DNA of 64,000 bases from a phage: NCBI GenBank assembly GCA_024613925.1, contig GCA_024613925.1_4713.1, one strand, 5' to 3'. Each line of letters begins with the position of its first letter. The stretch's first letter is position 1. The translations under genes were made by a program, and so were the position numbers. The notes below the pieces were generated by a model. That model was not told the origin of the DNA, searched no databases, and was given only the letters and a program-made list of their open reading frames with translations. Positions 10,595 through 47,900 of this stretch are shown one piece after another.

Positions 10595-13500
10595 TTATCT
10601 TACGTTATTGCTATTCTGCTGTTCGCTGAACCAACCGTACACCTTGAGATCGGTACCGTATTTCAATGCGATATACGCATTGAGCGCAGCACAGAACAAA
10701 GACGCGAATGCCCATATCAGCGAAGGATCAACATCTTCCGTTACCACCGGGAGAGTATTATCCGGTTCCCACGATGGAGAACCGTCCATGAACGTCGTGT
10801 ACCATTCCCGCCGTTGTTCTTCGGTGGTAAAGTCGCTATGGGGTTCCAATGCTTCTTTTGCCAAACGTCGATATTCGAACATATGCGTTGCTAAAGCCGA
10901 TGAGTTACCAGATTCGCCTTCATAGTTCGGATCCACCGCATAACAGAGTTCTGTTGAATCTAACAAAGCAACCGCCTGTGTGATGCTGTCGGCAGTGCCT
11001 GCACCATAGAGCTCGATAGACTGCGAAAGCTTCTCACAGAACGCATTTAACGCGGCAGGATTGGACACCTGAAGGTCAAGGCCTAATGTCCACGGATAGT
11101 TACTGAACACACCCGTAAACCGCGGCATGACACCCAACAGATGTTGTCCGATTACGGCACGGTTATAAACAGCCCGGTTATAGACTTGAAACGCAGCCTC
11201 CAAGGCTTGGTTATAATGACGACGAAGTTCGTCACGCGAGTTGCGGAATCTGTTTGCCGCAAGACTCGTGGCTGCGACGCTACAAACATCGTAATTGGTG
11301 GACGAGAGCACAGTTTCGTTAAGATCGAACGATTCCTGTTTCAACGATCCGCTAACCGCTGCTGCTTCGCTGTTTGCTTTATCGACAACTGTACTCAAAG
11401 CGTTGATGTAACGTTTCGCTCGGACTTCCAACCATTGTGCAATGCCGAGAATATCCACCGCAGCTTTAGCAAGATCGCGTGCATTCACGATTTCGTTCTT
11501 CAACGCCCCTAAACCTTTATTCTCAGGCGAAGAGGCTTGTTGACGAATCATGCTGTTCAACATGGTAAGCAGATTATCCAACTCATGTCCACTGACCTTG
11601 TTACGCGCATCGGTAATCGGCCCTTGCAGGAATTTACGGCAACCGTCGTTGTATCGAATCAGTTTATCCACATCGATCGATTCGTTCGTAGATTCCTTGA
11701 ACTGATCCTTCAATTCTTCACGGTAGTCATGGATTTCACTTGCGAGATTATCGATAGTGATACCGTTATGTCCAAGAAGAACTTTATTGAAGCTACCTTT
11801 CTCGAATGCAAGAGCAAGACCTTCACGAATCTTAGCGAGTTTATCCTGATCGAGTTCACGACCGTTCGATAGCTCTTTCACTTCCGAGCTGATTAGTGCC
11901 GCAACGTTACCCAGATTGTCGGTAACCCCTTTGAACGCTCCCGACCAGATCGTTCCTGCTTCAGCATATTTCGCAATGGTCTGAATACCGACGGTGTGCA
12001 GCGACGCTAAACGTTTCTTCGTGCCTTCGGTAAGCAGTGCGTCTTTAGCTCGCGTAAGTTGACTGTTATTAGCTTCCGCCTGCTGAATCGCCGCTTTCGC
12101 ACTTCCATTACGCCAGCTCTTAACCAACCAATCAACCAAACGTTTTAAGATGTTGACGGTGTATTCCATCGTCCGCCGTAACGTTTCCCACGCGCTTTCT
12201 GCGGTATAGATGCCGTACCCTTCCATCTTCAACGCTTTCAAGCTTGTTTGACGTGCCAACCATTCTACCGTTGCAGAACAAACGTTTACTAATGCTTCCA
12301 GGTAGTTGTAATAGACGTCTGTTGCGGCCGTTTCGTTGAGCTTTGAATGCAGATAAAACTGATCGTAAAGTTCGTCGTCATCGCCGAAGGCATCGTAGTT
12401 CCACAGCTCAGTATCGCAGCCTGTGCCGCAGAAGACGTCTGCTGTTGTAAACTCTTTAAGCGCTTTAGCCGCATCATTCGTCAGGAATTTACCTGTTTCA
12501 ACTACATCATCGACGTTAAGCTTGGGGAGTTCATCAGTAACTGGCTCTTGCAACATTAACGTGTTGAAGAATGCGTTGTACTTGTATCCGAGCCATTTTG
12601 GATAACTGCTTTCAGGTATCGTAGACAACGGCTTGATTTTCTTGGCTTCAGCCAGCGTGTCTTTTGCAACCTGATATTGGTTTTCCCCGGCCTTGATACG
12701 ACGTAATGCTTTTTCTTCCAACTGCTGGAGTTTGGCATGCCGTGCTTGTGCGGGAGCTTCAACAAGTTTTTGTACCGACCGCACTGCAGAAATCGCTTCT
12801 TTTAATACGATCATCGGCATACGAACTTTGCCGTCGTCAAAACTAAGAGCCCGAGCGACACGCTTACTTACGACAGGTTTGTCGTGGATATTTCGTTCCA
12901 CCCACGATTTGTTTGCGTAAGTTTGGGTGAGCTGCTGCTGGATATTTTCAAGGTATTTCCAGCTTTTGGACGCTTTGCTATCCAAAAGCGGATTCGGTCC
13001 CTTCTTATCGAAAAGTTTCAGAATCGGATCAAAGAAACCTTCCTGTACGAGATCGATACACGTGTAACCATCAGCCGCTTCGATTTCCTCTTGGGTTTTA
13101 TCCCAGAGTTGTTCACTGTGTACCGCACGAGCTGTTTCTGATACGGACATAATAACTTCAGTGACAACCTCAGCGTAAGACAATACTGCCCGCACCCACT
13201 CTACCAACATACGCTGATAGATAACACGTTGACATTGACAACGTGTGATGATGGCGAGATAACTTACGCTGTCGAGTTGTTCATTCGTACGAACATCCTC
13301 AACTTGTTCAATTAGTTGTTTAACTAACTGTGCTGTCTCTGGGTAATCGTGGACGACGTCGCGAATAACTTGCGAAGCATACACTGCGGTACCAAGGGCG
13401 AGATGGAGTTTGGTTGCATCCCACTCTTTTTCTGCTGTTGCCGGATTGTTCGGTATTAGGTAACCGATATCGTCGAAATATGGCTTAATAACATCGATAT

Positions 13501-14191
13501 TAGTCTTACTCTTAGTCGGTATCAGCGTATCATCAATGTTGCTTTGGTCTGGTGTTAATGCTAGCATACCCTTGAGAATTTGAGTATCAGCAGCGTATAA
13601 CGAAGTTAATGCTTCAGTTACGTCAGCGAGATCGATAATAGGCGACCATACCTTCAAGAGTTTACTTTCGTATTTCTCAATCGCGATTTCGATATCTTCC
13701 TTTACATCGGGATGATCGATAAGACGACCTACCGTCTGTTGTATCTCGGCAAATCGGTTGACATGATTTTGAGTCAATGCGGTAAAATCGTCAACGTACG
13801 ACGCATTGTCTTCAAGACGCGTAAGTTCCTGCTCCAGAAGATCTTTTACTTGCGTGGCGGATGCGTTTCTCAACTGTTCCCCGATAATCGCGATGGCTTT
13901 ATCGACAACACGGCAGGCTTCATTGAAACCGGTTGTTGAAGGTAACTCGGTCCATAATGCCAGCGGCTTACCTTCCATTGCGTCAGGAAGGGAATATGAC
14001 AACATTGCTAGTTGTTGACGTGATACCTGTTTGTCACGATGTAACGTTTCTTTCAACGCCAGAAGCTCATCAAGACCCACACTGCTAGGGATCGTGGGAT
14101 GTGATACGGCGTTGATATTTTCTGTCAATGACTCAAGAACCAATAAACCATTTTCAGCGGAAGATAACCCTGCTTTAAGGTATTTGTTCAT
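10595..14191 (-). CDS. Giant alpha-helical protein (1198 aa), virion or ejection protein candidate
   Basis: Long ORF, helix-rich composition, no catalytic motif recognised. Confidence 0.6.
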   Translation of the reverse strand: MNKYLKAGLSSAENGLLVLESLTENINAVSHPTIPSSVGLDELLALKETLHRDKQVSRQQLAMLSYSLPDAMEGKPLALWTELPSTTGFNEACRVVDKAIAIIGEQLRNASATQVKDLLEQELTRLEDNASYVDDFTALTQNHVNRFAEIQQTVGRLIDHPDVKEDIEIAIEKYESKLLKVWSPIIDLADVTEALTSLYAADTQILKGMLALTPDQSNIDDTLIPTKSKTNIDVIKPYFDDIGYLIPNNPATAEKEWDATKLHLALGTAVYASQVIRDVVHDYPETAQLVKQLIEQVEDVRTNEQLDSVSYLAIITRCQCQRVIYQRMLVEWVRAVLSYAEVVTEVIMSVSETARAVHSEQLWDKTQEEIEAADGYTCIDLVQEGFFDPILKLFDKKGPNPLLDSKASKSWKYLENIQQQLTQTYANKSWVERNIHDKPVVSKRVARALSFDDGKVRMPMIVLKEAISAVRSVQKLVEAPAQARHAKLQQLEEKALRRIKAGENQYQVAKDTLAEAKKIKPLSTIPESSYPKWLGYKYNAFFNTLMLQEPVTDELPKLNVDDVVETGKFLTNDAAKALKEFTTADVFCGTGCDTELWNYDAFGDDDELYDQFYLHSKLNETAATDVYYNYLEALVNVCSATVEWLARQTSLKALKMEGYGIYTAESAWETLRRTMEYTVNILKRLVDWLVKSWRNGSAKAAIQQAEANNSQLTRAKDALLTEGTKKRLASLHTVGIQTIAKYAEAGTIWSGAFKGVTDNLGNVAALISSEVKELSNGRELDQDKLAKIREGLALAFEKGSFNKVLLGHNGITIDNLASEIHDYREELKDQFKESTNESIDVDKLIRYNDGCRKFLQGPITDARNKVSGHELDNLLTMLNSMIRQQASSPENKGLGALKNEIVNARDLAKAAVDILGIAQWLEVRAKRYINALSTVVDKANSEAAAVSGSLKQESFDLNETVLSSTNYDVCSVAATSLAANRFRNSRDELRRHYNQALEAAFQVYNRAVYNRAVIGQHLLGVMPRFTGVFSNYPWTLGLDLQVSNPAALNAFCEKLSQSIELYGAGTADSITQAVALLDSTELCYAVDPNYEGESGNSSALATHMFEYRRLAKEALEPHSDFTTEEQRREWYTTFMDGSPSWEPDNTLPVVTEDVDPSLIWAFASLFCAALNAYIALKYGTDLKVYGWFSEQQNSNNVR

Positions 14192-14272: not shown

Positions 14273-17068
14273 TTACGCTAATTTACCGAAACCGGCTTTC
14301 TGTAGTTTCTCGTTGATCAGTTTTGCTTCCGCGAAAACATAATCACGATACGCAGTAACTAATCCGTCCACCCGTGAGCGCAAGGCTTCTTCGAAGCTAT
14401 ACCACGCAGCGATTTCACGAATCTGTGCGTTGATATAATCAACGGTTGAGTGAAGCTCGGTTGCGTTTTCTTGCGGGATGGCTTTCACCTGGCGAGCAAC
14501 GTCATTTAAACGACGGAACTGTGTTTCGATTTCTTTAAACTTACTGTCGGCAAGTTTGCTGAATTCATCACCGGAACGGGTAAATAACAGATAGCTGTTG
14601 CCGTCAAGTGCGGTCGCTAACTGCTGAAGTACGTTGGTGTCCGGATACACTGGGGTACCGCTTTGCAGTACTTTCTCACCGAATTCCGCGAAGTCCTTCG
14701 GTGGTAAGTGCGCAGACGTTGTCAACTCGTTGAAACGGAAAGTCAGCGAATTATCATACAGCATCCGGTACGCTTCCATACCCTGTTTCATGGTACCAGC
14801 CAGGTTAGCCAGACGCGGAGCAATCTCGCCTTCTTTAGCGCGTTTCTGGTCTTCTAACGCCCCTTCGAGTTCTTTACACTGGTCGTTCAGATACACGATA
14901 CGATCGGGACGCAGACGACGCATCTCACGAAGAATAGTATCCAGCTTACCTTCCTGGAAATAACCTAACGTTAAAGACGTACACGCTTGCTGAAGACGAT
15001 CGAACACCGGTAAGGTTACCATCTCTTTACGGATACCATCAACAATCGCAGAAACAGCCGAAAGTTTCTGTTCGGTAGTTAATGGAACGTCAGAGACCGA
15101 CTTACTCGGCGCACCAACAACGTTACGCATTGCGTCGGTATCCTCGGTTTTATCAACCTCTTTACGAACATGCTCGTCAGGAACATAAACGTTCGCGTTA
15201 CGTTTCGCCTGCTTGATAGCATCGCTGGCCGCTTTTTCGGTGGCAGCTACGCTATCGGTACGTTTCTTCAAGAGTTCGATAATCCAGAGCAACAGACGAC
15301 GAATCGCGGTATAGGCCGTCGTGATGATGACGCCGATAACAGCCATCTTCATGATACCGAACGATTCCATGGTCGGCTCTAACGCCTGGTCTGGCATATA
15401 CCGTTCACGTAGCTCGAGATAGATCTGCTCGTCCGGTTTGCTGATCTCACCACGATGCGATGTCCGATAGATAGCTTCATCAATTTCAACAAGATCTTTG
15501 CGTGCCTGACGGTCTGTTTCGGTCAAATAAGCGCAGCCGGATACGTCGTCTTCAAAACTTTCGAACTTAAAGAAATCGACAACCATCTTGGCAAGCGTCT
15601 CTTTCTTAGCAGGGTCGAATGTCTTCGCATTTTCTTTTATTTCCTTGAATTTCTCTTTATAGTCATTCAAGGGTTTTACCGCCCTTGTCTTCAACGCGTT
15701 ATAGATAGTTTTCCAACTTTCTTCACGTTCTAAGATAAGGAAGTAATTTTTGAGTTCAAAAGCACGATAACGTGCAACGAGCTGCTCCACCTGAATGTGG
15801 GCGAGCTGGATATCCATTAACCAACGCGACATCGCCGAGATCAAACGGCTATAAGCGAACAACGTTTGGTAGGTTAACTTCATGTATGTTTCATACAGCT
15901 CAATATCGCCGCTCTGAATATTGGCCGTTGGATTCATTTCCTTCGTTGCTTTGAAAACTTGCTCTGCTTCTTTCAAGGTCTTCTCGAACTTAACCTCGTT
16001 GAAAGCAGTGAATGGCTCAGCCAACTCGTGCATTTTATCATGAAGCTCGCGTACCCATTCTTCCTTGTTGTTGCGAATACTGATGTCGTCATGAAGCTCG
16101 GTTTGATGTTTTCGTACCCATTCTTCCACGATATCGGCTGCGGAAACAATCGGGACGCGATCTGAAATGAGTGGGACGATCGCGTGAAGCGCCCCGACAC
16201 ATTCTGGTGTGTCCCAGTATTTTTGGAGTTCATCACGGAAACGGTTGATGTTTTCTAAGGTGGTACCTAAATCAAGGAAAGTACCGCCATTATGACTCAT
16301 TTGTGCAACCAGATCGGCAAATACCTTTTGTTTTTCGATGACAAAAGGAACCATCTGCATAAGCCACTCAGCGGTTGCTTTAGCCTTTTCTTTCAGGTTC
16401 TTATCGGCGATTTCTTTGAGGTTAATCGCACTACCGTATCCGGCCAGTTCTTTGTAAATATCACTAAGTGTCATCTCTTTATCCAACATTTCTTTGAAAC
16501 GTGGATAATCCGCACCTAACGCGTCGATGACTTCTTGGATGACGTCGTCTGTGGTAGCGATAAATTTATTTGTGCCGCCGTAATGTTTCCAGATTTTCTG
16601 TAGCATCTTCTTAAAGAATTCGAAGACGAATGTCCAGATACGCTTGATGAGTTCCCAGACTTTCTTCGCGCCATCAACAAACAGTTTAGAGACCTTAGCA
16701 ACGAATCCTTCCTGCACCAACTCAACGCCGTTACGTGACGGGATTTCCGTGAAGAAAGCATCCGGCAGTTGTTTCGGGAACGCGTCACCAAGACGCATAC
16801 GCAGTTCGGGTACATCAGCGCGAGAAATACCGCGTGTCGTTAGTTGCTCGTGAAGACGAACGTTTTCTTCACCAGAGGCTACGAATTCGTTAACATCGAA
16901 GGACACCATTGCTTCCTGATCTTCGGTGGTAACGACGCTTGAACCATCGCTGGTTTGGATGTCTTCGTCAGGGAATGCCATGAGCATACCGTGACGCATT
17001 TCAACCACCCCGTAATCGGTTGCTAAACCGAATTCGTTATGATCGGGGGTAATAACTGGGATACTCAT
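14273..17068 (-). CDS. Giant alpha-helical protein (931 aa)
   Basis: Long ORF; 4-bp overlap with upstream gene 17065..17505. Confidence 0.6.
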   Translation of the reverse strand: MSIPVITPDHNEFGLATDYGVVEMRHGMLMAFPDEDIQTSDGSSVVTTEDQEAMVSFDVNEFVASGEENVRLHEQLTTRGISRADVPELRMRLGDAFPKQLPDAFFTEIPSRNGVELVQEGFVAKVSKLFVDGAKKVWELIKRIWTFVFEFFKKMLQKIWKHYGGTNKFIATTDDVIQEVIDALGADYPRFKEMLDKEMTLSDIYKELAGYGSAINLKEIADKNLKEKAKATAEWLMQMVPFVIEKQKVFADLVAQMSHNGGTFLDLGTTLENINRFRDELQKYWDTPECVGALHAIVPLISDRVPIVSAADIVEEWVRKHQTELHDDISIRNNKEEWVRELHDKMHELAEPFTAFNEVKFEKTLKEAEQVFKATKEMNPTANIQSGDIELYETYMKLTYQTLFAYSRLISAMSRWLMDIQLAHIQVEQLVARYRAFELKNYFLILEREESWKTIYNALKTRAVKPLNDYKEKFKEIKENAKTFDPAKKETLAKMVVDFFKFESFEDDVSGCAYLTETDRQARKDLVEIDEAIYRTSHRGEISKPDEQIYLELRERYMPDQALEPTMESFGIMKMAVIGVIITTAYTAIRRLLLWIIELLKKRTDSVAATEKAASDAIKQAKRNANVYVPDEHVRKEVDKTEDTDAMRNVVGAPSKSVSDVPLTTEQKLSAVSAIVDGIRKEMVTLPVFDRLQQACTSLTLGYFQEGKLDTILREMRRLRPDRIVYLNDQCKELEGALEDQKRAKEGEIAPRLANLAGTMKQGMEAYRMLYDNSLTFRFNELTTSAHLPPKDFAEFGEKVLQSGTPVYPDTNVLQQLATALDGNSYLLFTRSGDEFSKLADSKFKEIETQFRRLNDVARQVKAIPQENATELHSTVDYINAQIREIAAWYSFEEALRSRVDGLVTAYRDYVFAEAKLINEKLQKAGFGKLA

Positions 17069-17505
17069 GCATTCTCTCCTTGCAGTGCGTTAGCGAAAGC
17101 CGTTGCGAGTTGCGCAACCAGCTTAGGATCAACACCTTCGATAACGTCGGGCAGTCCTGCGGTTTCTTGGTCACGAACAGCGGAGGCTAATAACAACATG
17201 GTTTCAGGTGCTGTCGGCTCGTGCACCATGCGGTAACGCAAGCACCAGAAATAGCGAGCGACGTCTAACGCGTCAGCTAACCCGATAACCAGTACCTTGT
17301 TCAGCTTATCCAGCCCTTCACGGATTTTAGGGAGATGTTCACGAACGAAGATGCTATCCGCAGTCAGATCTTCTTTTTCAGCGAATACTGGCATGCTGTA
17401 ACCGGCGATGTAACCTGCGGCAATACTTAATGCACGGGTCTGTTGTTCGGCCGGGAAGTCACGTACCAGGTCTTTCAGCTGAACGGCGAAATCAGAAATA
17501 TTCAT
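17065..17505 (-). CDS. Hypothetical protein
   Basis: 146-aa ORF, translationally coupled to downstream gene. Confidence 0.5.
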   Translation of the reverse strand: MNISDFAVQLKDLVRDFPAEQQTRALSIAAGYIAGYSMPVFAEKEDLTADSIFVREHLPKIREGLDKLNKVLVIGLADALDVARYFWCLRYRMVHEPTAPETMLLLASAVRDQETAGLPDVIEGVDPKLVAQLATAFANALQGENA

Positions 17506-17538: not shown

Positions 17539-18858
17539 TTACGCGACGACAGAGTCGAGTTTCGCTGACACTTTGAACAGATCGTTGTTGATAACCGTAG
17601 ACAGTGTTTTCTGAACCTGCTCCTGCTTCACGGCTTGATGAACGTCAGGACGCAATGCGATGGTAATGAGCTCCATAATGGTACGATTATCGTTGAGAGT
17701 TTTCAAGATCTTGTCGATTTCCTTTATTGCGTCTAATGTCGATACGCGGATATCCTGAGGCAAATCGCGATCTTTAAGACGCCCAACCAACTCTTGTTTT
17801 AATTTCGCAACACGATCCTTATCACTGGTATACGTGGAATAGGTGAAGTCATACTGCGTTATTGTTTTCAGGTTGACGAAAAGAGCCACCGTGCCCATTG
17901 TACCCAGGAATGGGTTAATTAACGATAAACCGGCGATTGCACTAATAACTGACAATGAACATATGGCATATTGCGCCCAAACACTAACGCGATCCCTTAC
18001 TGATATTCTTCCGAAGTGTTTATACATCTTCGCTAGTGTGTCTGCCATTGCAGCCCCACCACCATGACGGGTGACGAATTGATCAGCAGCAAATTCCGCT
18101 GAGGTATCAGAATACCGTCCGGTATGCGTTGCGACACGTGCCTGTTCTTCTTTATTGCTTATATACACGGTATACCAAGTGGCAACATCGCTTGATTCCG
18201 CAATGGCGTTGACATCAACCGTTGTGCCCATCGCATCGTTTAATGATTTCGCGAGAGTGATCTTTTTCTCTTTATCCGTTGTTTGCAGTAGTTCGCGTGC
18301 GACGGTTGCGAGAGAAAAATCGGTCTTAGCGGATTCGGCGATAAATTCCAGGAAAGTAAAAGCATGCCCAACCTCGTGCATGATAAGCGCTGCTTTGTTT
18401 TCTGGAATAAATTCCGTGGTACGAATAAATCCGTCGGTTACTAATACACGGATAGTGATTTTCTCGAATGCGCCTTTCACCCTACCGTTGACAAGATCGA
18501 CCACACCGACGACTTCGTCGATGTTTTTGCTTAACTGTTTAAAGTCGCTGTTTCGGTAGAACTGTTTACGCCATTCCTCAATAAGCACGTTGTTTTTTGT
18601 AATATCCGGAGTAATACAGAAACAGTTAACTTCACTCATGTTCGGTATTACTTCTGTCTGGATAGTCAACCCAGTGTATTTGCGTATTAAATCGGTTAAT
18701 ATTTTACCACCGATATATTTTACCTTTTCCTCATAGCTGGTAAGATTATCCATTGTTTTGAAGAACTCGGTCATTTCCTTGAACATGGAACCATCTTGAA
18801 ACTTGATGGCCTCCATCGTTAATTCGTCATGACCATACACGCGTTGTAGTAATGACAT
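17539..18858 (-). CDS. Putative Zn-metallopeptidase (HEXXH) with hydrophobic C-terminal segment
   Basis: ALIMHEVGHAF contains HEXXH; hydrophobic stretch WAQYAICSLSVISAIAGLSLINPFLGTMGTVALFV. Confidence 0.55.
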   Translation of the reverse strand: MSLLQRVYGHDELTMEAIKFQDGSMFKEMTEFFKTMDNLTSYEEKVKYIGGKILTDLIRKYTGLTIQTEVIPNMSEVNCFCITPDITKNNVLIEEWRKQFYRNSDFKQLSKNIDEVVGVVDLVNGRVKGAFEKITIRVLVTDGFIRTTEFIPENKAALIMHEVGHAFTFLEFIAESAKTDFSLATVARELLQTTDKEKKITLAKSLNDAMGTTVDVNAIAESSDVATWYTVYISNKEEQARVATHTGRYSDTSAEFAADQFVTRHGGGAAMADTLAKMYKHFGRISVRDRVSVWAQYAICSLSVISAIAGLSLINPFLGTMGTVALFVNLKTITQYDFTYSTYTSDKDRVAKLKQELVGRLKDRDLPQDIRVSTLDAIKEIDKILKTLNDNRTIMELITIALRPDVHQAVKQEQVQKTLSTVINNDLFKVSAKLDSVVA

Positions 18859-19080: not shown

Positions 19081-20580
19081 ATGAGCGAACAAGAACGAAA
19101 ACCTAAGAAGAAACTGCTCGGTATTCAATGTCGACACATCAGCTATAACGAAGCGAACGATGGCAGCAAGAACGACCTCATGATCGCAAAAGAGATCATG
19201 TTCTTTGATGATAATACGCAAGCGACGAACCTTCGCTTCTTCGAGAATTACAAACGTCCGTTTTGGGTGACGGTAGAGAGTAAACGCAAGAACAAATATA
19301 AAAAGGAAAGCGAGAAGCTATCGCATGTGCGTCGCTACGATGTCCGTCAAAGTGAACTGGTTGAAAAGATCAGTTCGGTGCTTTATAAAAGACGTGCTGA
19401 TGATAACACCCGTTTACAACAGCTTGCACGGAGTCCCTACCTCTATGGCACGGACGTTAGCGCCAGCTGTTATTTAAAAACCCAATACAATACAAAATGG
19501 CCGGAATACGTCGATAAATTACCTGCTTCCATTGCCTGTTTCGATATCGAAACCGACGTTGTCCACGGGCACGGTAAGATCGTCTGTATGTCTATTACAA
19601 TGGGATACAATGCGATACTTTGCTATACCAAGGACTTCGTTGGTCATATTCCGAATGCGATTGAGAAAACCCATGAGAAGATTCGATATTACCTGGCCGA
19701 ACGTCTGAACACCAAAGAAGATCCGCACGCATTTGAAAAATACCAATACGATGTTCGAATCGTAGAAAGTCCAGCACAAGCGGTCATCCAATGCATGCAG
19801 AAGGTTCACGAATGGCAACCGGATTATCTCCTTGGCTGGAATATCGCGTTCGATATTCCGCGTATGCTCCAGGCACTGAACGAGGAAGGGTATCGTCCCG
19901 AGGATGTTTTCTCCGATCCTCGTGTACCACCTAAATACCGTATTGCTCGCTGGGTGCCACCGAAGACCGACAAGGTATCTGCTTCAGGTCGTAAAACCAA
20001 CCTTACCCTTGAGCAAACCTGGCCGATGTTTTATACGATGGCCACGTATCAGGTTATGGATGCGATGTGTGGTTATAAGTTCGTTCGTTTAGGAAGACCG
20101 GATGAGGGACGCTATTCACTCGATGCGGTATTAGAGCGAAATAAATGCCATACGAAATTAAAAGCAATTCCTGGTACAGAAGGGTTCACAGAGCTCGCCT
20201 GGCACGAAGAGATGCAAACGAACCATCAAATCGACTACGGCGTATATAACCTTTGGGATAACCAAGGCATCGAGGCGTTGGACCAGAAAACAAAAGACTA
20301 TTCGATGACCATCCCTATTCGTTTGGCGGCGTCGGATTTGAAAGATTTCAGTTCTAACCCTAAACGTATCTGCGATAAACTTTTCTTCGTTTATCTTAAC
20401 CGTGGGGAAGTCATGGGATGCACCGCCGACGATATGACTCAGGAAGAAGATAAGTGGGTTATCTCACGAACCGGACATATCGTCACATTACCATGCGATC
20501 TCATGGCGGACAACGGCATTCATCTCTTCTGGGATATGCCGAACCTGAGAAGTTATATTCGATTATTTGTTGCGGATTAA
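19081..20580 (+). CDS. Family-B (T4 gp43-like) DNA polymerase N-terminal plus 3'-5' exonuclease fragment
   Basis: Exo I CFDIETD, Exo II GWNIAFDIP (cf. T4 GWNIEGFDVPYI), Exo III block NHQIDYGVYNLWD (cf. T4 NHQRYISYNIIDV); GHIVTLP then FWD at residue 485 resembles the pre-motif-A region; ORF stops before any fingers, motif B/C or thumb. Confidence 0.7.
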   Translation: MSEQERKPKKKLLGIQCRHISYNEANDGSKNDLMIAKEIMFFDDNTQATNLRFFENYKRPFWVTVESKRKNKYKKESEKLSHVRRYDVRQSELVEKISSVLYKRRADDNTRLQQLARSPYLYGTDVSASCYLKTQYNTKWPEYVDKLPASIACFDIETDVVHGHGKIVCMSITMGYNAILCYTKDFVGHIPNAIEKTHEKIRYYLAERLNTKEDPHAFEKYQYDVRIVESPAQAVIQCMQKVHEWQPDYLLGWNIAFDIPRMLQALNEEGYRPEDVFSDPRVPPKYRIARWVPPKTDKVSASGRKTNLTLEQTWPMFYTMATYQVMDAMCGYKFVRLGRPDEGRYSLDAVLERNKCHTKLKAIPGTEGFTELAWHEEMQTNHQIDYGVYNLWDNQGIEALDQKTKDYSMTIPIRLAASDLKDFSSNPKRICDKLFFVYLNRGEVMGCTADDMTQEEDKWVISRTGHIVTLPCDLMADNGIHLFWDMPNLRSYIRLFVAD

Positions 20581-20648
20581 GAAATAAATCGGTTAAGTAT
20601 TACTACTCTGTTCGATGGTTATGGGATAACCAAATGGAGTAGTCATGC

Positions 20649-21755
20649 ATGAATAAATGGTATTTACCAGAGGCACGTTTTAAATACTACGCAACTGACG
20701 ATGGTCTTTTCCATTCAACTGGAGAGGCTGTTCCGGTTACCGTTAAAGATGGTATCTCGTATGTCGAGATCGACTGGTATCGTGGTCTAGGTCTATATGA
20801 CGCCGGACTCGCTGTTATGTGTGCGTTGAGAGCGATAAACATACCAATCTACTTACTTGATCAAGCATATTCTCTTTACATTGACGGGAATCCTGAGAAT
20901 GTAAAACGTGAGAACCTGCTTTACCGTTTCAAAGGCGGTAGGTTGGAAGTACCTGGATGTCCCGGCTATTATTTCATCCCCTTCCATTCTCGTTATGCTA
21001 TTAACGAGGAAGGTTTGGTGATCAATGTCGAGACGGGGTTCGAAAAACGCTGGTCGCAAATGAAACCTAACAAGAAACAAAAGACCCATGGCGGTTACGT
21101 TTACCAACGTACGGTAAATGATAACGGATTCACATCCCAGCTTTATCAGCATCGTGCTATGGGTTACGTGTTTCTTGAATACGGTGCCGACGTTATGGAT
21201 AAGACAATAAACCATAAGAACGGCATCAAATGGGATAATCGTCCATGTAACATTGAGTGGGCAACGTATACGGACAATAATAAGCATGCGGTTGATAGCG
21301 GTCTTCGTACAGAAGGATTGCATCCTGTTAAGGTTAAGGATTACAACACCGGTGAAGTCAGGGTATTCCCTTCAATCGCTGCGTGTTGTGCTGCTTATCC
21401 ATGCTTGGAACGTAAACGTGTTTGGTATTGGATGACGCGTAAAACGAAATTCATGCCAGCCTGCAATCTGTATTTCAAAGAAGTTGACGATGATACCCCA
21501 TGGCCAGATTGGCAGATCGGACAGCCTCGTCGTCTTCAAGAATATACGATGCCTAACCCTATCGCAGCTATCGATAAACAAACTGGTAAACGTTATGTGT
21601 TTGCATCAATTGCTCACGCACAACGAGAGACAGGTGTTTCTAACGTGACTATCATGAAGTACTGTCGTAATAGGCTTACAGAAGGTCGTTCTCCATTCAT
21701 CTTCCGCTATTTTGAAGATGTTAGTTCGATGCCTGTAGGCCTTAACGACGCTTAA
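20649..21755 (+). CDS. HNH homing endonuclease (HNH_3 type)
   Basis: INHKNGIKWDNRPCNIEWATYTDNNKH matches the H-N-(DNR)-N-H signature; C-terminal G.RVFPSIA / GKRYVFASIAHA repeats resemble intron-encoded nuclease DNA-binding modules. Confidence 0.8.
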   Translation: MNKWYLPEARFKYYATDDGLFHSTGEAVPVTVKDGISYVEIDWYRGLGLYDAGLAVMCALRAINIPIYLLDQAYSLYIDGNPENVKRENLLYRFKGGRLEVPGCPGYYFIPFHSRYAINEEGLVINVETGFEKRWSQMKPNKKQKTHGGYVYQRTVNDNGFTSQLYQHRAMGYVFLEYGADVMDKTINHKNGIKWDNRPCNIEWATYTDNNKHAVDSGLRTEGLHPVKVKDYNTGEVRVFPSIAACCAAYPCLERKRVWYWMTRKTKFMPACNLYFKEVDDDTPWPDWQIGQPRRLQEYTMPNPIAAIDKQTGKRYVFASIAHAQRETGVSNVTIMKYCRNRLTEGRSPFIFRYFEDVSSMPVGLNDA

Positions 21756-21789
21756 CCGATTTTAGGTCCCGGTGGGGATAACGCCCCCA

Positions 21790-22114
21790 CCGGATTCCCG
21801 TTAATTGCTGGAACCCCCTAAAGCCTTTCGACCACAGCGGATTCTGAAAAGAAAAACGTCAAGGTTAGAAAACAGAAAGGATGTTCGTAAGGAAACGATA
21901 AATGGGCAATCAGCAGCGAAGCTTCTAAGGGCCTGCATTAGCAATAAGACCTAAGAAGAACGTTCAACGACTATCCGGTCGCGCGGAGTAAGGGACAAGC
22001 GTCCCCAAACACGGGAGGGGTGCGAAAGCATTCCATGATATAGTCTGCTCCTAAGTGAAAGCTTAGGCGGGTGGTACACACCGGCATAAGAGTTGCGTCT
22101 TATGTGGACAATGG
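21790..22114 (+). ncRNA. Group I intron-like ribozyme core
   Basis: Q-like AATCAGCAGC (21908-21917), R-like GTTCAACGACTA (21962-21973) and S-like GATATAGTC (22037-22045) in the canonical order; P7 GACTA/TAGTC pairing; P9-like hairpins CCTAAG..CTTAGG and CATAAGA..TCTTATG. Confidence 0.5.
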
Positions 22115-22369
22115 CTTGACATTTCTTCAAGTTATCCCAACGGGCAGATACTGCTCAATCTATCCAGAGCATGTGTTTTTCGTGAGCTCTCGCGCATTGA
22201 GGGCGTCTCTGACTATCAATTCAGGAAGTTAGGTATCAACTTTATTACCGGAGGTAAAACGAACGCTGTAGACTTCTGTAGAATCGTTTATAAAGCGCCA
22301 TCGATGTTTGAACTCTTAGAACATTTCGATGCGACGCGTCCAAAAGAGGAAGCGCGGACCATCGAATGA
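22115..22369 (+). CDS. Putative 3' exon (start-less ORF) of the interrupted polymerase gene
   Basis: Frame with no stop from 22067 to TGA at 22367-22369 and no start codon; translation ..QWLDISSSYPNGQILLNLSR.. contains a motif-A-like DxxSxYP; a terminator hairpin follows. Confidence 0.3.
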   Translation, partial: LDISSSYPNGQILLNLSRACVFRELSRIEGVSDYQFRKLGINFITGGKTNAVDFCRIVYKAPSMFELLEHFDATRPKEEARTIE

Positions 22370-38641: not shown

Positions 38642-39226
38642 TTACACAGTTGTAGGAAATTCCGGCCAATCGATATTTGGTGCTGTTGATGTGTCAACGC
38701 GATGCAGAGCCACCCGATACTTTTTCCATGCCGTCAACATGGACACCTCTTCTTCCGTTGCGATCTCCAGATCCACAGCATCCTGAAGTGGCGTAATATG
38801 ATCATTCGCCGCCTTCATCAGACTGTTTTTTGTTTCTTCCGCCTCCCGGATCCGGAACAGTTTTTCTGCTTCCGTATCCTTCACCCAGGCTGTGCCGTCC
38901 CACTTCTGAAACTCCCCTTCCGGCGATAACCAGGTAACATTTTCCGGTAACGGACCGAGTTCAGAAATAAATAACGCGTCGCCGGAAGCCACGTCATAAA
39001 CCGTTTTACCCCGATGATCTTCAACGAGATGCCACGATTCATTTTCATTGTTAAAAACTGCCACAAAACCAGCAGGAATTTCCGGTGGGGCGATATCTGT
39101 AGAATTAGCTGGCAGACCTGTATGAGGCGGAATATATGCATCACCTTCACCAATAAATTCATTAGTTCCGGCCAGCAGATTATAAATTTTTATGGTCCGT
39201 GGTTGTTCACTCATTCTGAATGCCAT
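38642..39226 (-). CDS. tfa: Tail fibre assembly protein (lambda Tfa family)
   Basis: [39 protein letters not shown]... matches the lambda/E. coli prophage Tfa chaperone as recalled from memory; directly follows the fibre gene with start/stop overlap. Confidence 0.85.
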
Positions 39227-42200
39227 TATGCAAGCCTCACGATGTAGTTAAATGCAATGTTTTTGACGGTGTTTTCCGCGTTACCCGTAGCGTTAACGGT
39301 GATGGTGTGTCCATGTGATCCAATCGCAACCGAGTGCGTATGCGCACCAATACCTACAGTATGTGCATGTGCGCCAGAACTTGCTGCAGTACCAGACAGC
39401 GAGTGGGTATGTGCTCCATCTGATGATGTCTTCCCTGATATACGGGTCATACCTGAGCCACCTTCCAGTGGTACAATTGGTGCTTTGACTGAAACCTGGG
39501 TATAACCGTTAGGAAAGAGTGCACCATTATTAGAATTCGTATATGGTCCAGAACTCCGGTGTTGGTGCCCACCTGCACTATTTGCAGTCCCGCTCACACT
39601 GTGTGTATGTGCCCCGGTGTTATTCGTGGATTTAGTGCCGTAATCAAACGACGATGTGGTTTTCGTCCCCAAATCCGTATTGGATGCGCTGGCGCTATGG
39701 TTGTGCGATTTTATGCCGTCCTGTTCCTGAGACAATACGGCACGACCACTGGCAGGTTTGCCCTTAATCGTCCAGCCACGCATATCAGGAATAACGCCTG
39801 ACGGATAAGCCACTGCAAGTTTCGGGTATACAGATTTGTCAAAAGTCTGCCCTTGCATCAGAGCATAACCAGACGGAACGGTATCTGAAGGCCATGGAAT
39901 AGGCGCGCCAACAGGCAACTCCGGAGGTGCGGTAAACTCACCCAACTCCTTTATTGCCTCAATAAGTAGAGCTATTTGGGCAGAGATAGAGACCGTTAAA
40001 ACGTCCTCACCATTAGCGTCTTTATAAGTAGAAACTGCTTCAGGTAACACTTTTTGTAAGGTTTGTGCTACAACGCCAACCTCACGATGAACATTAGTGG
40101 ATTTAAAGTTCTCCTTTTTGTCGTATATTAAACCTGACAATTTCTTTACCTTCTCCAATGCATTAGTTATTGGAGAGAAATTACTTTTCAGCCGGGCGTC
40201 TGATCGTGTATAAACTTCGTTAAAGTTACCGTTCCCATCACAATCTATATTTCCAGTAACGTTGAGAGGTACATAGCTTTGAACAGCCTCTCTCGTAAAG
40301 CGTAAAACGTGGTCATAATCGGCGTAAACATCTAGAACGCCGTCCCCGTTCTGCTTAAAGCCGGTGTCATCATCCCCTAAAGCTATGGAGTTCTCACCTA
40401 AATGATTCTCGGTTCCAATACCCAGATTATCGCTTAAAATACTATCAATAGCAAATATTGAATGAGAACAATAAAACCCTCGTCCATTGTTAAAATCCAA
40501 AATGGTTTGTGCGTTCGTGCTTTCTGTCGCGGGATTAGTTGCTCCCCACTTATAGGTTGTTTGACCGACGGTATAATTCTTGGTCGGAACACTAACCGAT
40601 AACCCTTCTTCGGCAAAAACTTGAATAGGGAAAGCCCTACCTTCGACGTAAAAAACGCTGCACACATCATCATCTTCCGCACCTGTTACAATGGAATGGA
40701 TTGCGCGCTCATCAGTATCATATATCGAAAAATACCCTGCTGCGTATGAACCACGATCAGTCCAACCGCCCGGCATTACCGTTCCATTGAATTCGCAGTT
40801 ATTCATTGCATAATCACCACTGGCAGATGTGGTTGTAATAACCACTCTGGAAGCCAGTTCGCCAGTGCTACCAGTGGAACGCCGGAAAATAACTGGATAC
40901 CACTTTCCGCCAACGGCTTTAGACGGCGCGTTAAATACGTACTGCCGCATTCCTTTTTTCTTATCCACCTCGTCTTTGCTGTAAACATTAATGTTACTCA
41001 GGAAGCGACCCTTATCAGGAATATCTGCGCCGTTAGAACTGCGTTGCATAGCGCCCGCAGCTTTATCAACAGTGGTTTTCAAACCCAGGAAGTTAATGAT
41101 ATCGGCCGTCGACCCTTTCGCTAACAAATCACGCGCAGTCGAGGTGAAATCCGCTAACCCTACCTGATTACTACCGGTAAAATAAGGGAGTTTATTCGCT
41201 TCTGTTGTTAGGTTAGACCACGCCGTGAGCAGCGCGTTCAAAGGTTGTTTACCCGCCAACGTATTGGTTATTGTCGTTGCGAAATTAGGATCGTTCCCTA
41301 AAGCTTGAGCCAGCTCATTAAGCGTATTTAGCGCTTCTGGAGACGAGTCGATCAGTGATGCGATAGCACGCATCACAAATTCCGTGTTGGCAATCTGTCG
41401 ACTGCTATCGTTCTCTGCAGCCGTAGGCGCTGCCGGGATACCGGTGAACACAGGGCTATTAAGATCTGCCTTGAGAGCGATGAGACGTTTAAGTGCGTCG
41501 ACATCGACTTTCAGGTTTTCCCATCCGATGAGAGAACCACCACTGCTGGCATGGTAACGGTTGTACCAGAAGTCACCGTTAACGCCTAAAAAGAATATTC
41601 CCTTCTCTTCGTTTTGTGGGCCGGAACTATTTCGTGACGAGCTGATGTAATTGATTTCAATGAGGCCGTTAAACGTCACTCCCGGGATGATTTTGTTGTC
41701 TCCAGCCGACTGTGATACCTGGTAAATCCCCGGGGTTGCGGCTTTGACCCATGTTAAGAATTCTGTTACTCCAGCGGTACCGCTGAAATTCTTAACGTCG
41801 GTAAGTATTGCCCCATAACCGAACATACCGGGTAGAGCCACTCGTCCGTTGGTGCGGTCACGAATATCTGTTGCAACAACAGGCAATTGTTTACGAACGG
41901 CATTAACCGCTTTAGGCGTGGCCGATTTTGTCTCGTCGTCGCTATCGGTTTCATTACTTAGAATAGTTAAACCGCGCGTAGCAGTCGTTGCATCAGGAAG
42001 AAATGCGTTATCCAACACCTTAAGCTGTATTGCACTCGTATTACTAACAACGACATGCACCTGACAGTTAAGAACGCTGGTTGCGCCTTCGGTAGGCGTA
42101 GGCTTATATCTTTCTGGCGCACTGCAGACGGCAATCAGAACACCTTGGTCATCATACAAACCGATCTCACGTACCCAGAACCCACCTTGACCAGCAGGAA

Positions 42201-42438
42201 TAATACCCTCAACGATAATCCTGGTTGTGCTGTCACCATCCGCATGGATATTAGAAACTTCCCCACGATAAACTTCGTGAACAAGCGCTGTTTGGCTGGC
42301 GTTCGGGGTTGGGATCGAGCCGTTACCATCACCAACGGCAAAGTGTGTGATTTTTAGTTTCTCACCGTCGGGAAGTAACGCAGCGGTGATACGTTCTGCT
42401 CCTTTATCGGTAACTACCGTTATATATGCTGTACTCAT
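39226..42438 (-). CDS. Tail fibre protein, mosaic: P2 gpH-like N-terminus and lambda Stf-like His-x-His C-terminal tip
   Basis: N-terminus ..[20 protein letters not shown].. and collar motif [26 protein letters not shown]; C-terminus [53 protein letters not shown]. Confidence 0.85.
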
Positions 42439-44922: not shown

Positions 44923-47900
44923 TTAAATTGTTGGTTTAATATCGCGTAATAGGGCAATATAATAGCCTAATCCTCGGAGGATCTCTCCACTCCAGAAACC
45001 AAAATACATTCCGTCTCTGCCGAGATTAGCGCTATCTGGTGCAGGACTCCACCCACCATTCATTACGTCATCAACGGTGTAGCGGTTGATGTAGTTCTCA
45101 ACGATTTCGTTATACGCATTAACCGCAACAGAATAGCCTTTATCGTTGGGATGTCCGTACAACATTGCTAACGACGCACCCGCCAACCATAATCCTGCCA
45201 TATGACCAGTAAAATCATTAGGGATAAAAGCAGGGGGTTTATCCATCGGAAAATCCGTAGGAGATTGATAAGCGTTTTCCTGTTGATACGTAAACAAGAA
45301 ATCGATCCAATGGCTGATGTAAGTGGTTAACTTCTCAGGGACGGCTAAACCACGATCGAGCAGTCCAGCATAAAGCCTCACCGCTGAGAAGAAAGCCCTC
45401 GGCTGATAACCAGACCATGCCGTCTGATCGCCGAAGTGGTACATCGTAAAATCATTAACTTTTGATCCGCTTGGCGCATCCCAACGATCCCACACGTACG
45501 CACTTGCCCCTGGCCCTAAAACCCCGAATTTCTGATAATACCACTGCTGCGAGTCATACCAGAAATTCACAACATTCTGAATCATGAGGTCACGTCGTTC
45601 AGCCGATACGTCCATATCCAGGAAGACCCATGGATGTTGGTAGCCGGGATAAGGCTGACCACGCCAACTGTCGAACGTCGGTGCGTTAGGGACATAGTTG
45701 TTCGAGAACGGAATAATACCCGGAGTATAAGGCAATGGATCCAGACGTTGGTTGACAATCGTACAATCGCCAACACGCAGTGTGCCCTCCGCCTCAAAGG
45801 TTGCTTTTAACGTAAACAGCATGGTATATCCGTCATCCGTGGTGTAAGTTGACGGTGGATTGTTGATGGCGTAAAGCTTAAATACCCCTTCAGCGATATC
45901 GCCGTCGTCAGGCAAGAACAGAATTTCAGTTGAACCATCGCCCCACACAGGTGCAGAAGGTTTAGGGTCAGTATCAGCGTGGCCCGGTTGATACCCTGAG
46001 AGCGTCCATCCGTTCGCCGAAAGCGTCAATGTATTTCTTGCTGTGGTGGCCGGTAGCATATACCACCATCGCCAGCCGTTTGTATCTTCTACACGAACGT
46101 TGTAGTCAATCGACGCGAAATAACTGACCTGCCTTACGATCTGTTTTGCGGTCGGATTGAATTCAAATTGCCCGCCTGCCGCAGTAAGCTGCGCTTTTAG
46201 GAACAACCCATCCCAGGAATCTTCCACCGCTTCGCTGAATTCTGTTGTGATGGCGACATCATCTTTCCAGCCGACTTTATCAGCCGATATCAACACAGAA
46301 CCTGTAACAGCATCGCCGGTTGGCGTTGAAGCTTCATCAACCGCATCAGCAGGAATCAACGAGCCTATTTTGAAATCCCATTCTTTCGGCTCGGCACTGG
46401 AAGGTAACACCAGCTTGTACGTTTTGGCTTTCGCTTCGGTTTTGTCCAAAGAAAGCGATAATGAGATCTCAACCGGAATTGCAATACCCGCTGTATCTTT
46501 ACCACCGCAGGTTACACGAAGAATTGAATCACGATTGACGCGGAACGGAATAGCCTGCTGTTCAAGGTAAATTTGTGCTGAGGATGCTTGAATCACGATC
46601 CAGCCGTCAGTATCACGTGTAATTGTGAACGGTGCTTTCGATGGATAGGTATACGTGTAAGCGATACCGTCGGTGTCGTAACGATCGGTTCCTTTTACCT
46701 GACGGAAGAACTTATCGTTGGCGTCGATACGAGTATATTCTTCAATCGTAAACAACGATGCCTTGTACGCTTTCTGATAGCGCTCCTGCTGCGTTAAACT
46801 GTATAAGGTGTAGGCTGCTTCACAAAACCACTGTTCAGCGTCTGACGCGTTTCCCATGTAGTCTCTGGTGACCGGCACCTGGATCGGTCGGTTATGCTGA
46901 CACTCGTTCGTTTTGATGAGGTATCCGCCATATTCAACAGGAACGCGGGGTGCCCACGCAACCAAATAAGAACCGCTGACGGACTTATCTTTGAGTACGA
47001 TGGTGCCCACCTCATCGTCAGTACACGCTTCAAGATCGTCCCCGCCCACACTTACGTATCGTTTTGTGCGTAACGCAACTTTCTCGATAGGGAACACCGT
47101 ACCCTTTGTATCCCAGTCAATCGTCCCATCATCATTGGTTTTGAACACATCGGCGTTCAAATTCTGCCAGCCGAGTTTACCCTCATAGACCTGAACAACA
47201 AGATCCATGTATTCCCCGAACGTTGGTGCCCCATGTGTTATTTTCCCGATACCGTTGGTGAATGTAACCGCGGTGTCATGGAAACCGCCATGTGTCGGGT
47301 AATCGTTTTTTGCAAGAGGATAATGGGCCAACACCGGCTGTTTACCATTAACAATCCAGTTAGCGATCCAGCGTGCCGGTGTATCCGGTGGTTCAAGACC
47401 CGCATAGAACGCTTTTATATACGCATCGAACGATGCCTCCGCTAATGTGAGATAGTGCGCTTTAAGCTTGGTATCATCCGTTGTATGACTGAATATACCC
47501 GCACCCAGAATTAACAACGACTGTCCTTCTGTTGTTGCGTCACCATCCGGTTGTGCTTCTTGTCGTGTTGCTGCAATGAAATGACGGTTGTTTACCATGA
47601 CCCCGCTTTCATTTAACACGTAATGATCGGTTTCTGGATCGGTAAACGTTCCTGTGTTTCGGGTTAAGAATCTTGCATGGCCATAACCAACGAAATTAAC
47701 CGGCGACGCTGTAATCATCCATTTACCGATAAGTTGAGCAACATCATTATAACGCTCGGATGCGGTGATTTGTTTCACGTACCAGTCTTTACGGTTAAAT
47801 GTCCAAAGCAGGAAGTAATAAGTTGTATCGATTTCCATCACTGGGAACGTCGGCGTTAACGGCTCCAGCATTAAGTAGTTGCTCCAGTCAATCTGTCCGC

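Follow-up and report, generated by a model that had tools for sequence, protein, structure and literature searches.

The vertex-binding complex of the inner capsid consists of gp65 and gp66 in phage Goslar and of gp86 and gp85 in phiKZ, and SPN3US gp47, at the gp86 position, was proposed to act in ejection as an essential protein bearing a transmembrane helix. Encoded beside this complex is a further virion protein. In SPN3US it is gp45, a head protein from which the prohead protease gp245 removes a 20-aa propeptide. Its phiKZ counterpart, gp84, is annotated as a "structural head protein", and in Goslar, published mass spectrometry (MS) of CsCl-purified virions detected gp067 (gp67) with 46.8% coverage and 19 peptides at an estimated 32/48/76 copies, a number accurate to about ±50%. 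Our literature search (phiKZ gp84; M48 and jumbo phage; metalloprotease and Chimalliviridae) found no functional study, and the label "M48 family" occurred for a homologue only as a GenBank product name in the literature and records searched.

We analyzed a member of this family encoded in a 64,000-nucleotide stretch of phage DNA (the window). The ORF occupies 17539–18858 on the minus strand, which the sequence-only reading had not specified, starts with ATG, and encodes the 439 aa given in that reading plus a stop codon. The entire ORF (17539..18858, minus strand) is orthologous to Goslar gp67, phiKZ gp84, PhiPA3 gp086, and SPN3US gp45. It matched phrog_2767 with an E-value of 1.6e-72 over residues 12–435; this family, which also includes 201phi2-1 gp145, is annotated as "virion structural protein" with function unknown. 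Full-length identity of the window protein to Goslar gp67 was 48%, and the two shared the HExGH...ExxAD residues, a hydrophobic segment, and an N-terminal [S/A/G/T]-x-E site. When the protein was used as a tblastn query, matches were obtained in 218 jumbo-phage records. Among representatives of 50%-identity clusters, 3052 relatives reached E ≤ 1e-3, of which 1578 also reached E ≤ 1e-30; this search gave the family its depth, and further homologue searches that returned alignments contributed hardly any new sequences. Family members that look like fusions (P0169, P0170, and P0162) were scanned for partner domains, and no informative one was found. The source of the window is a Goslar-like chimallivirus, and these results strongly support the window protein being a conserved virion (head) protein of the nucleus-forming, phiKZ-like jumbo phages (Chimalliviridae).

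The gene order around the ORF was then compared with that of related phages. A DNA polymerase gene in divergent orientation, followed by gp84, gp85, and gp86-like genes all pointing the other way, is common to Goslar, phiKZ, PhiPA3, SPN3US, and PCH45, and the window matched this neighborhood with a divergent DNA polymerase upstream and gp85-like and gp86-like genes downstream. The first downstream gene (17065..17505, minus strand) encodes a 146-aa vertex-binding-complex protein homologous to Goslar gp66 and phiKZ gp85. It is followed on the same strand by a 931-aa gene (14273..17068) that is homologous to Goslar gp65, takes the place of phiKZ gp86 and SPN3US gp47 (vertex-binding complex), and has one hydrophobic segment at residues 571–589. 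The third gene (10595..14191, minus strand; 1198 aa) corresponds to Goslar gp64 in a long form and has a hydrophobic segment at residues 1157–1176; gp64 is a virion protein that was left unmodelled in the cryoEM map. The window contains two 1198-aa ORFs; they were considered as paralogues, which was rejected on comparison. The placement of the ORF inside a virion-gene block is thus borne out by these homologies and by the virion MS of homologues; the "two giant proteins" said to lie directly downstream, however, are separated from it by the 146-aa gene. Co-transcription of the window protein with homologues of inner-capsid vertex-binding-complex proteins is strongly supported.

We next examined the predicted active site. 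Residues 161–165 form the zinc-binding motif HEVGH (18364..18378, minus strand), as previously noted; it was invariant in 161 relatives and aligned to HELGH of ZMPSTE24. By analogy with M48 peptidases, both His residues are predicted to be zinc ligands and the Glu to be the catalytic residue. A second motif, E255-F-A-A-D259 (18082..18096, minus strand), matches the M48 "ExxAD", its Glu being the predicted third zinc ligand and its Asp the conserved one, and aligned to ZMPSTE24 residues 412–442, in which the Glu matching E255 is presumably the zinc ligand E415. H161, E162, G164, H165, E255, and D259 were 100% conserved in the 161 family representatives, as was R349, although the mean column identity across these divergent relatives was 25–28%. 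In the AF2 model, HEVGH lay inside a predicted helix (residues 152–192) and E255–D259 inside another (residues 251–264). Both belong to a putative M48-like zincin catalytic domain of approximately residues 63–285 (18004..18672, minus strand), composed of a beta-sheet, the helix that carries HEXXH, an inserted helical region, and the helix with the Glu. H161, E162, and H165, together with E255 in the ExxAD helix, strongly support a complete, predicted gluzincin active site.

Assignment to M48 came from the family rather than from the single protein. Against the window protein alone, Pfam Peptidase_M48 (PF01435) scored 12.2 bits (E 0.16; threshold, 20.3 bits), whereas it matched 22 of 110 family members at E ≤ 0.01, the best at 4.6e-6. 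The family profile matched ZMPSTE24 (E 1.4e-4) in an alignment that paired both zinc-ligand motifs, and hhalign of the family with Escherichia coli YcaL, BepA, and HtpX gave 86% probability (E 5e-6) over 63 columns only. The window protein had no match to PDB sequences in phmmer, no significant match to the PDB in Foldseek, and nothing meaningful in NCBIfam. The predicted catalytic fold was that of a zincin/gluzincin and was closest to solved structures of M48, the family of Ste24/ZMPSTE24, HtpX, Oma1, BepA, YcaL, and LoiP; M56 peptidases (BlaR1/MecR1) and ArdC/SprT zincins gave weaker matches, and their architecture differs in that the window protein has no sensor or ssDNA-binding domain. The membrane members of M48, HtpX and Ste24, also differ from it, with transmembrane helices that flank or interrupt the catalytic motifs, whereas the sole hydrophobic segment of the window protein follows both motifs. 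The metallopeptidase assignment of the sequence-only reading is therefore supported by the invariant catalytic residues, Pfam M48, the ZMPSTE24 profile match, and hhalign, and the absence of a metallopeptidase fold, which that reading had named as grounds for abandoning it, does not apply because family-level M48 evidence was found.

An inactive pseudo-protease, or a purely structural protein carrying HEXXH by chance, would agree with the weak Pfam match of the window protein alone and with the lack of a significant Foldseek hit. However, the metal-ligand and catalytic residues were all invariant over the 161 divergent relatives. When sequences of the protein's own composition were shuffled, HEXXH was expected in ~0.5–0.7% of them, and not in about 1 of 400 residues as had been estimated, and HEXXH followed 40–120 residues later by ExxAD appeared in 0 of 20,000 shuffles. 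Family-wide conservation and shuffling together rule out a chance HEXXH, and we regard loss of activity or a purely structural role as highly improbable.

The N terminus was then compared with those of head proteins that are processed during assembly. Residues 1–16 (18811..18858, minus strand) form a predicted propeptide that ends at a prohead-protease site, T-M-E16/A17 (the slash marks the cleaved bond). TME16/A aligned with the experimentally mapped end of the 20-aa propeptide of SPN3US gp45, ASE20/S, and 159 of the 161 members had S/A/G/T at P3 and E at P1; phiKZ gp84 lacked the conserved N-terminal cleavage motif in our alignment. In the Goslar virion MS data, a semi-tryptic peptide, AIKFQDGSLFKEMTEFFR, begins directly after E16, at A17, and one gp67 peptide spans HEIGH. 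A propeptide ending at TME16/A implies that the protein goes into the prohead, where the phage's dedicated prohead protease trims it. Site conservation and the MS of homologues strongly support the window protein being head-packaged and trimmed in this way. The internal proteins of T4 and other head proteins bearing a capsid targeting sequence (CTS) likewise have a short N-terminal propeptide (16–20 residues) cut at a P1 Glu by the prohead protease, and, as in the window-protein family, the head contains tens of copies of them. The internal proteins of T4 leave the head together with the DNA, a step that for the window protein is a proposal; they have no sequence relationship to it, and the window protein differs in being a predicted enzyme with a hydrophobic hairpin.

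These processing data bear on the suggestion of the sequence-only reading that the protein is a maturation protease, that is, a second morphogenetic protease maturing the two giant downstream proteins in head assembly. Co-transcription with the giant-protein genes, the intact catalytic site, and the proteolytic processing of the neighbors' homologues are all consistent with such a role. However, the phiKZ and SPN3US homologues of these neighbors are cleaved at S/A/G-x-E by a dedicated prohead protease (PMC5694885, PMC10052503, PMC11297242). The mapped cuts in phiKZ gp86 and SPN3US gp47 are of this type and are ascribed to gp175 and gp245, respectively, and the reported SPN3US maturation sites are ascribed to gp245. 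Furthermore, the window protein itself carries such a site and is predicted to be cut there, which makes it a substrate of the prohead protease and not a maturation protease. The prohead proteases (phiKZ gp175 and SPN3US gp245; T4 gp21-like) are, like the window protein, proteases in the head during assembly. The window protein nevertheless belongs to a different catalytic class, showed no homology to the phiKZ gp175/SPN3US gp245 type, and is not the protein held responsible for the S/A/G-x-E cleavages. A morphogenetic role is thus very unlikely.

We then analyzed the part of the protein that follows the catalytic domain. A hydrophobic helical hairpin at residues ~291–333 (17860..17988, minus strand), with a turn at N315-P316, is a candidate membrane-inserting or buried segment. 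It was the sole segment with a Kyte-Doolittle 19-residue mean of at least 1.6 (maximum, 1.78), and AF2 predicted helices at 290–314 and 316–335 with low-to-moderate confidence (pLDDT 54–70). The long hydrophobic stretch reported earlier thus exists, but it is not C-terminal: it ends near residue 333 of 439 and is followed by ~105 residues that form an amphipathic helical domain. This domain (residues ~345–439; 17542..17826, minus strand), with conserved Y343, R349, K362, N425, and F428, is a candidate docking domain. A hydrophobic segment was kept in 96% of the 161 family representatives, with a median span of 37 aa, although its sequence was not conserved. An E-x-x-K pair in the first hydrophobic helix was conserved in many family members and absent from the window protein.

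With a family median of ~37 residues, the hairpin has little length for crossing a membrane twice, and protein contacts within the capsid could bury it instead. Such burial is part of an alternative in which the protein is a resident capsid component, a peripheral, flexible subunit of the inner vertex-binding complex that accompanies each gp65 at a ratio of roughly one to one and never leaves the head, where alone the protease would act, if at all, for example in trimming or clearing internal proteins. The conserved operon with vertex-complex gp85 and gp86 agrees with this alternative, as does the swapping of the center of the protein while the N- and C-terminal parts are kept (described below), as expected of docking surfaces. 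The estimate of ~48 copies compared with 55 modelled for vertex-complex subunits, and the unassigned density adjoining gp65 in the Goslar map, both favor a fixed capsid location over ejection, although the copy estimate is only good to that same ±50% and neither the phiKZ nor the Goslar capsid map resolves the protein. Hydrophobicity conserved without sequence conservation is also more typical of lipid-facing than of protein-facing helices. In addition, SPN3US gene 47 mutant particles look intact yet are non-infectious, which suggests that the module acts at infection. We consider permanent residence in the capsid a serious possibility, though not the probable one.

Comparison with Goslar at the nucleotide level revealed a divergent allelic cassette at residues 35–351 (17806..18755, minus strand; ~950 nt), which covers the protease domain and hairpin. 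The cassette had no nucleotide similarity to Goslar by blastn, whereas its flanks were 89–96% identical; unlike the gene center, the DNA of the C-terminal domain was ~89% identical. At the protein level, the first 34 residues shared 94% identity with Goslar gp67 and the cassette only ~40%, and the region-by-region values along the protein were 94%, 34%, 52%, 12%, and 57%. Two discrete allele groups were found, with the window protein carrying the allele other than that of Goslar. The cassette recombines freely among related phages. We also asked whether the gp67 allele goes with one form, long or short, of the gp64-like gene, as might be expected if the two proteins interact; it does not, as all four combinations occur in Goslar-like contigs. 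The exchange of a protease-plus-hairpin cassette between near-identical phages suggests, from the sequence pattern, that this part may face the host. The cassette is also a natural experiment, in which the portion facing conserved phage partners is set apart from a portion that may be turned toward the host.

A swapped, possibly host-facing cassette might also indicate an arms race, with the protein acting as a delivered counter-defense protease that arrives along with the DNA and destroys an immune or envelope protein of the host. An analogy would be ArdC, a plasmid anti-restriction protein that accompanies incoming DNA and has a metalloprotease domain. The two alleles are discrete, recombine freely, and are confined to the protease and hairpin, and virion packaging would give access before any phage gene expression. 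However, the family is core-like and conserved with an invariant active site rather than accessory, and there is no known defense target. Both alleles were also present in assemblies labelled Salmonella, so that no host-allele link was visible. We consider a counter-defense function unlikely.

Taken as a whole, the results are best explained by a head-packaged, M48-like zinc metallopeptidase that would be delivered at infection and act at a host membrane, a reading to which we assign a probability of roughly 0.55; both its ejection into the host and its insertion into a membrane are plausible. While stored in the head, the enzyme would be inactive or idle, and its conserved N- and C-terminal parts may dock it close to the vertex complex; at infection it would leave with the DNA and other internal proteins. 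The ~40-residue hydrophobic hairpin might then insert into a host-derived membrane, either the inner membrane or the early-infection vesicle, so that the protease domain, which is ATP-independent, would share one membrane face with the C-terminal domain. From there, the enzyme may cleave a host protein or a co-ejected phage protein.

The early-infection vesicle offers one specific setting for delivery and membrane action. The formation of this vesicle, the working of its transport channels, and its resolution are named in a review as questions for the field (PMC12908238). Action there before any phage gene expression means that the proteins concerned must come from the virion. In a speculative and rather improbable version of events, ~50 copies of the protease would belong to the membrane proteins that the phage delivers to the early-infection (EPI) vesicle, alongside the gp65-like and gp64-like products of the operon, which also carry hydrophobic segments. 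The short, Pro/Gly-broken hairpin would be wedged in the inner-membrane-derived bilayer, and the vesicle would be remodelled, matured, or opened. Cleavage of host inner-membrane proteins or co-ejected phage proteins might then lead to hand-over of the genome to the nascent nucleus. With an invariant protease site, virion packaging, and a conserved hairpin, E162 is a concrete, mutable residue for probing a virion-borne protease in early infection. If the vesicle version is true, this protein would be the first enzyme with an assigned part in forming or resolving a membrane organelle made by a phage.

The 439-aa ORF at 17539-18858 was confirmed as a single ATG-started frame on the minus strand, with HEVGH at residues 161-165 of its product (the window protein). 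The chance rate of HEXXH given in the sequence-only reading was wrong: ~0.5% of composition-matched shuffles contained the motif, and HEXXH followed 40-120 residues on by ExxAD was found in 0 of 20,000 shuffles of the window-protein composition. Searched alone, the window protein matched Pfam M48 under the threshold (E 0.16) and gave no match among PDB sequences; a Foldseek search against the PDB returned nothing significant. An exhaustive profile search yielded 3052 relatives at E<=1e-3 and 1578 at E<=1e-30, counted among 50%-identity cluster representatives. An alignment of 161 of these relatives (mean column identity about 25-28%) had seven invariant positions: H161, E162, G164, H165, E255, D259, and R349. 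A 143-sequence family profile aligned to human ZMPSTE24 (E 1.4e-4), with the family AAIxLHEvGH opposite LAVLGHELGH and the family tswEalADqFAaRhGagrdL also aligned; in the ZMPSTE24 structure, the aligned positions are the zinc-binding His and Glu residues. Peptidase_M48 was matched singly by 22 of 110 family members at E<=0.01 (best 4.6e-6), and no other Pfam family recurred among the 110 except for three SprT-like matches. In hhalign, the family aligned with Escherichia coli YcaL/BepA/HtpX over the stretch from the beta-sheet to HEXXH (86% probability, E 5e-6). The AlphaFold2 model had a pLDDT of 72.9 and a pTM of 0.71 at full length, and a pLDDT of 80.0 for residues 17-290 alone. The metallopeptidase assignment of the sequence-only reading was thus supported, and not refuted, by M48 matches at the family level. 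We read the window protein as a genuine, very distant M48-like gluzincin whose catalytic residues are all under strict selection; that it is an inactive pseudo-enzyme is very improbable.

The architecture was derived from the AlphaFold2 model and family conservation. A predicted propeptide (residues 1-16) is followed by three helices (24-62), beta-strands (65-141), a long active-site helix with HEVGH (152-192), a helical insert (196-245), a Glu helix with E255-x-x-A-D259 (251-264), two hydrophobic helices (290-314 and 316-335, with the junction at N315-P316), and a helical C-terminal domain (346-438) with conserved R349, K362, N425, and F428. The hydrophobic stretch first described as C-terminal does exist, at residues ~291-333, and is the sole strongly hydrophobic part of the protein (Kyte-Doolittle 19-residue maximum 1.78), but a helical domain of ~105 residues comes after it. 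Across the family, the hydrophobic character of this region was kept whereas its sequence was not: the Kyte-Doolittle mean was >=1.6 in 96% of members (median 2.19), over a span (median ~37 residues) mostly interrupted by Pro or Gly. This pattern fits a lipid-facing hairpin; given its shortness, it may be monotopic or re-entrant instead of forming two complete membrane spans. In contrast to HtpX and Ste24, the hydrophobic helices come after a complete catalytic domain, and if the hairpin enters a membrane, both the protease domain and the C-terminal domain would be on one side of it. An E-x-x-K pair (e.g., FMEVVK or AMEILK) is conserved in the first hydrophobic helix of many family members; the window allele has WAQYAI there (residues ~293-300). 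Long extensions at the N or C terminus, in which no family was recognised, occur in three relatives (P0169, 1237 aa; P0170, 963 aa; P0162, 575 aa); these proteins may be true fusions or may result from the merging of gene calls.

By tblastn, the window protein matched only phiKZ-like jumbo phages (218 records), the best match being Escherichia phage Goslar (48% identity, full length), and the DNA around the gene was 88-96% identical to Goslar save for a few patches. The window therefore derives from a Goslar-like chimallivirus absent from the phage collection searched. Gene names were assigned by synteny with annotated genomes. The window protein, which matched phrog_2767 (PHROGs, function unknown; E 1.6e-72), is the counterpart of Goslar gp67, phiKZ gp84 ("structural head protein"), PhiPA3 gp086, 201phi2-1 gp145, and SPN3US gp45. 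On the same strand lie a 146-aa gene (17065-17505; Goslar gp66, phiKZ gp85), a 931-aa gene (14273-17068; Goslar gp65, in the position of phiKZ gp86/SPN3US gp47), and a 1198-aa gene (10595-14191; Goslar gp64, long form). The window-protein gene had been placed directly upstream of the two giant proteins, a position occupied by the 146-aa gene. In the literature searchable, the phiKZ gp84/Goslar gp67 family has been assigned no function, only "virion structural protein"; the product name "M48 family lipoprotein protease" is given to the homologue in one GenBank record (Serratia phage Moabite).

The DNA polymerase gene, divergently transcribed from 19081 (plus strand), is interrupted (19081-22366): exon 1 at 19081-20589, an insert at 20590-22114, and exon 2 at 22115-22366. 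The 583-aa polymerase of intron-less relatives mapped onto two window segments. The ~1.5-kb insert, present in some and absent from other Goslar-like contigs, contains an HNH endonuclease ORF (20649-21755) and a group I intron (21742-22067; Rfam RF00028, 73.4 bits, E 2.8e-18). Further along the window, the minus strand carries large genes for a tail fibre (39226-42438; phrog_295 and others) and a tail protein (44923-48519; phrog_2871); the product of the latter, also 1198 aa, was rejected as a paralogue of the gp64-like protein, being unrelated and of the same length by coincidence.

The N-terminal site is conserved in the family and agreed with the S/A/G-x-E preference of prohead proteases from giant phages: P3 was S/A/G/T in 154 and P1 was Glu in 159 of 161 sequences, followed by [A/S]-I-x-F-Q. 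SPN3US gp45 is reported to be a head protein from which the prohead protease gp245 removes a 20-residue propeptide (PMC5694885, PMC10052503), and its ASE20/SIGFQ aligned in exact register with TME16/AIKFQ of the window protein. The supplementary peptide list of the 2026 preprint on the Goslar structure (10.64898/2026.04.21.720040) contains the semi-tryptic peptide AIKFQDGSLFKEMTEFFR, assigned to gp67 and starting directly after E16, and AAIMLHEIGHAFTFLETLSETVR, spanning the gp67 active site. Coverage of gp067 was 46.8% (19 peptides), with an estimated 32/48/76 copies per virion, compared with 51/76/120 for gp65 (55 modelled) and 73/110/173 for gp64 (10.64898/2026.04.21.720040). Over its first 34 residues, the window protein shares 94% identity with Goslar gp67, and it is therefore expected to be processed in the same way. 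These results strongly support head entry of the window protein with a short targeting-type propeptide that the prohead protease cuts off, as well as its presence in tens of copies per virion. We put the probability that it is a head-carried, active M48-like enzyme at about 0.85. The window protein falls outside the prohead-protease family, and a second morphogenetic protease, including the maturation of neighbouring proteins suggested by the sequence-only reading, is improbable: cleavage in homologues of the neighbours takes place at S/A/G-x-E sites ascribed to gp175/gp245, and the window-protein family is itself cut at a site of this type.

That the gene shares an operon with vertex-complex proteins is likewise strongly supported, and unassigned density adjoins gp65 in the Goslar map (10.64898/2026.04.21.720040). 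The main rival, a vertex-bound resident with its hairpin buried in protein, is a less probable reading. SPN3US gp47, in the gp86 position, is essential; amber mutant particles look normal but are non-infectious, and its authors proposed it to be an ejection protein bearing a transmembrane helix. Single hydrophobic, transmembrane-like segments were found in the gp65-like protein (residues 571-589, KD19 1.68) and the gp64-like protein (residues 1157-1176, KD19 1.93), echoing the helix reported for gp47; the whole operon thus codes for head proteins bearing membrane-like segments.

The region at 17806-18755 (residues 35-351, the protease domain and hairpin) had essentially no nucleotide similarity to Goslar, the sole match being 66 nt at 76%, whereas its flanks were 89-96% identical. 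Amino acid identity to the Goslar allele was 94% for residues 1-34, 34% for 35-150, 52% for 151-290, 12% for 291-335, and 57% for 352-439. Public data contained two discrete allele groups, 87-96% and 47-48% identical to the window protein, with none between. A second mosaic patch lies at 12230-13893, inside the 1198-aa ORF, and the gp64-like gene is long (~1194-1205 aa) or short (930 aa) among near-identical Goslar-like phages. Co-segregation of the gp67 allele with either form of the gp64-like gene (~1200 aa or 930 aa) was rejected; all four combinations exist, so the cassettes recombine freely, with no linkage seen. We infer that the retained termini are candidate contacts with conserved phage partners and that the exchanged centre may be turned towards a variable factor, perhaps the host. 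A counter-defence protease delivered to the cell is unlikely.

Ejection and membrane insertion of the window protein is our favoured, still tentative, reading, at slightly under even odds. The enzyme would be kept in the head, possibly close to the vertices, and exit together with the DNA; its hairpin would insert into either the inner membrane or the early-infection vesicle, where a host or co-ejected protein would be cleaved without an ATP requirement. Compared with M48 enzymes, the window protein is a distant variant that differs in three ways: its hairpin follows the catalytic domain, it has additional helical domains, and it is packaged in the virion. It offers a concrete, testable candidate for enzyme action during the first minutes of a chimallivirus infection.
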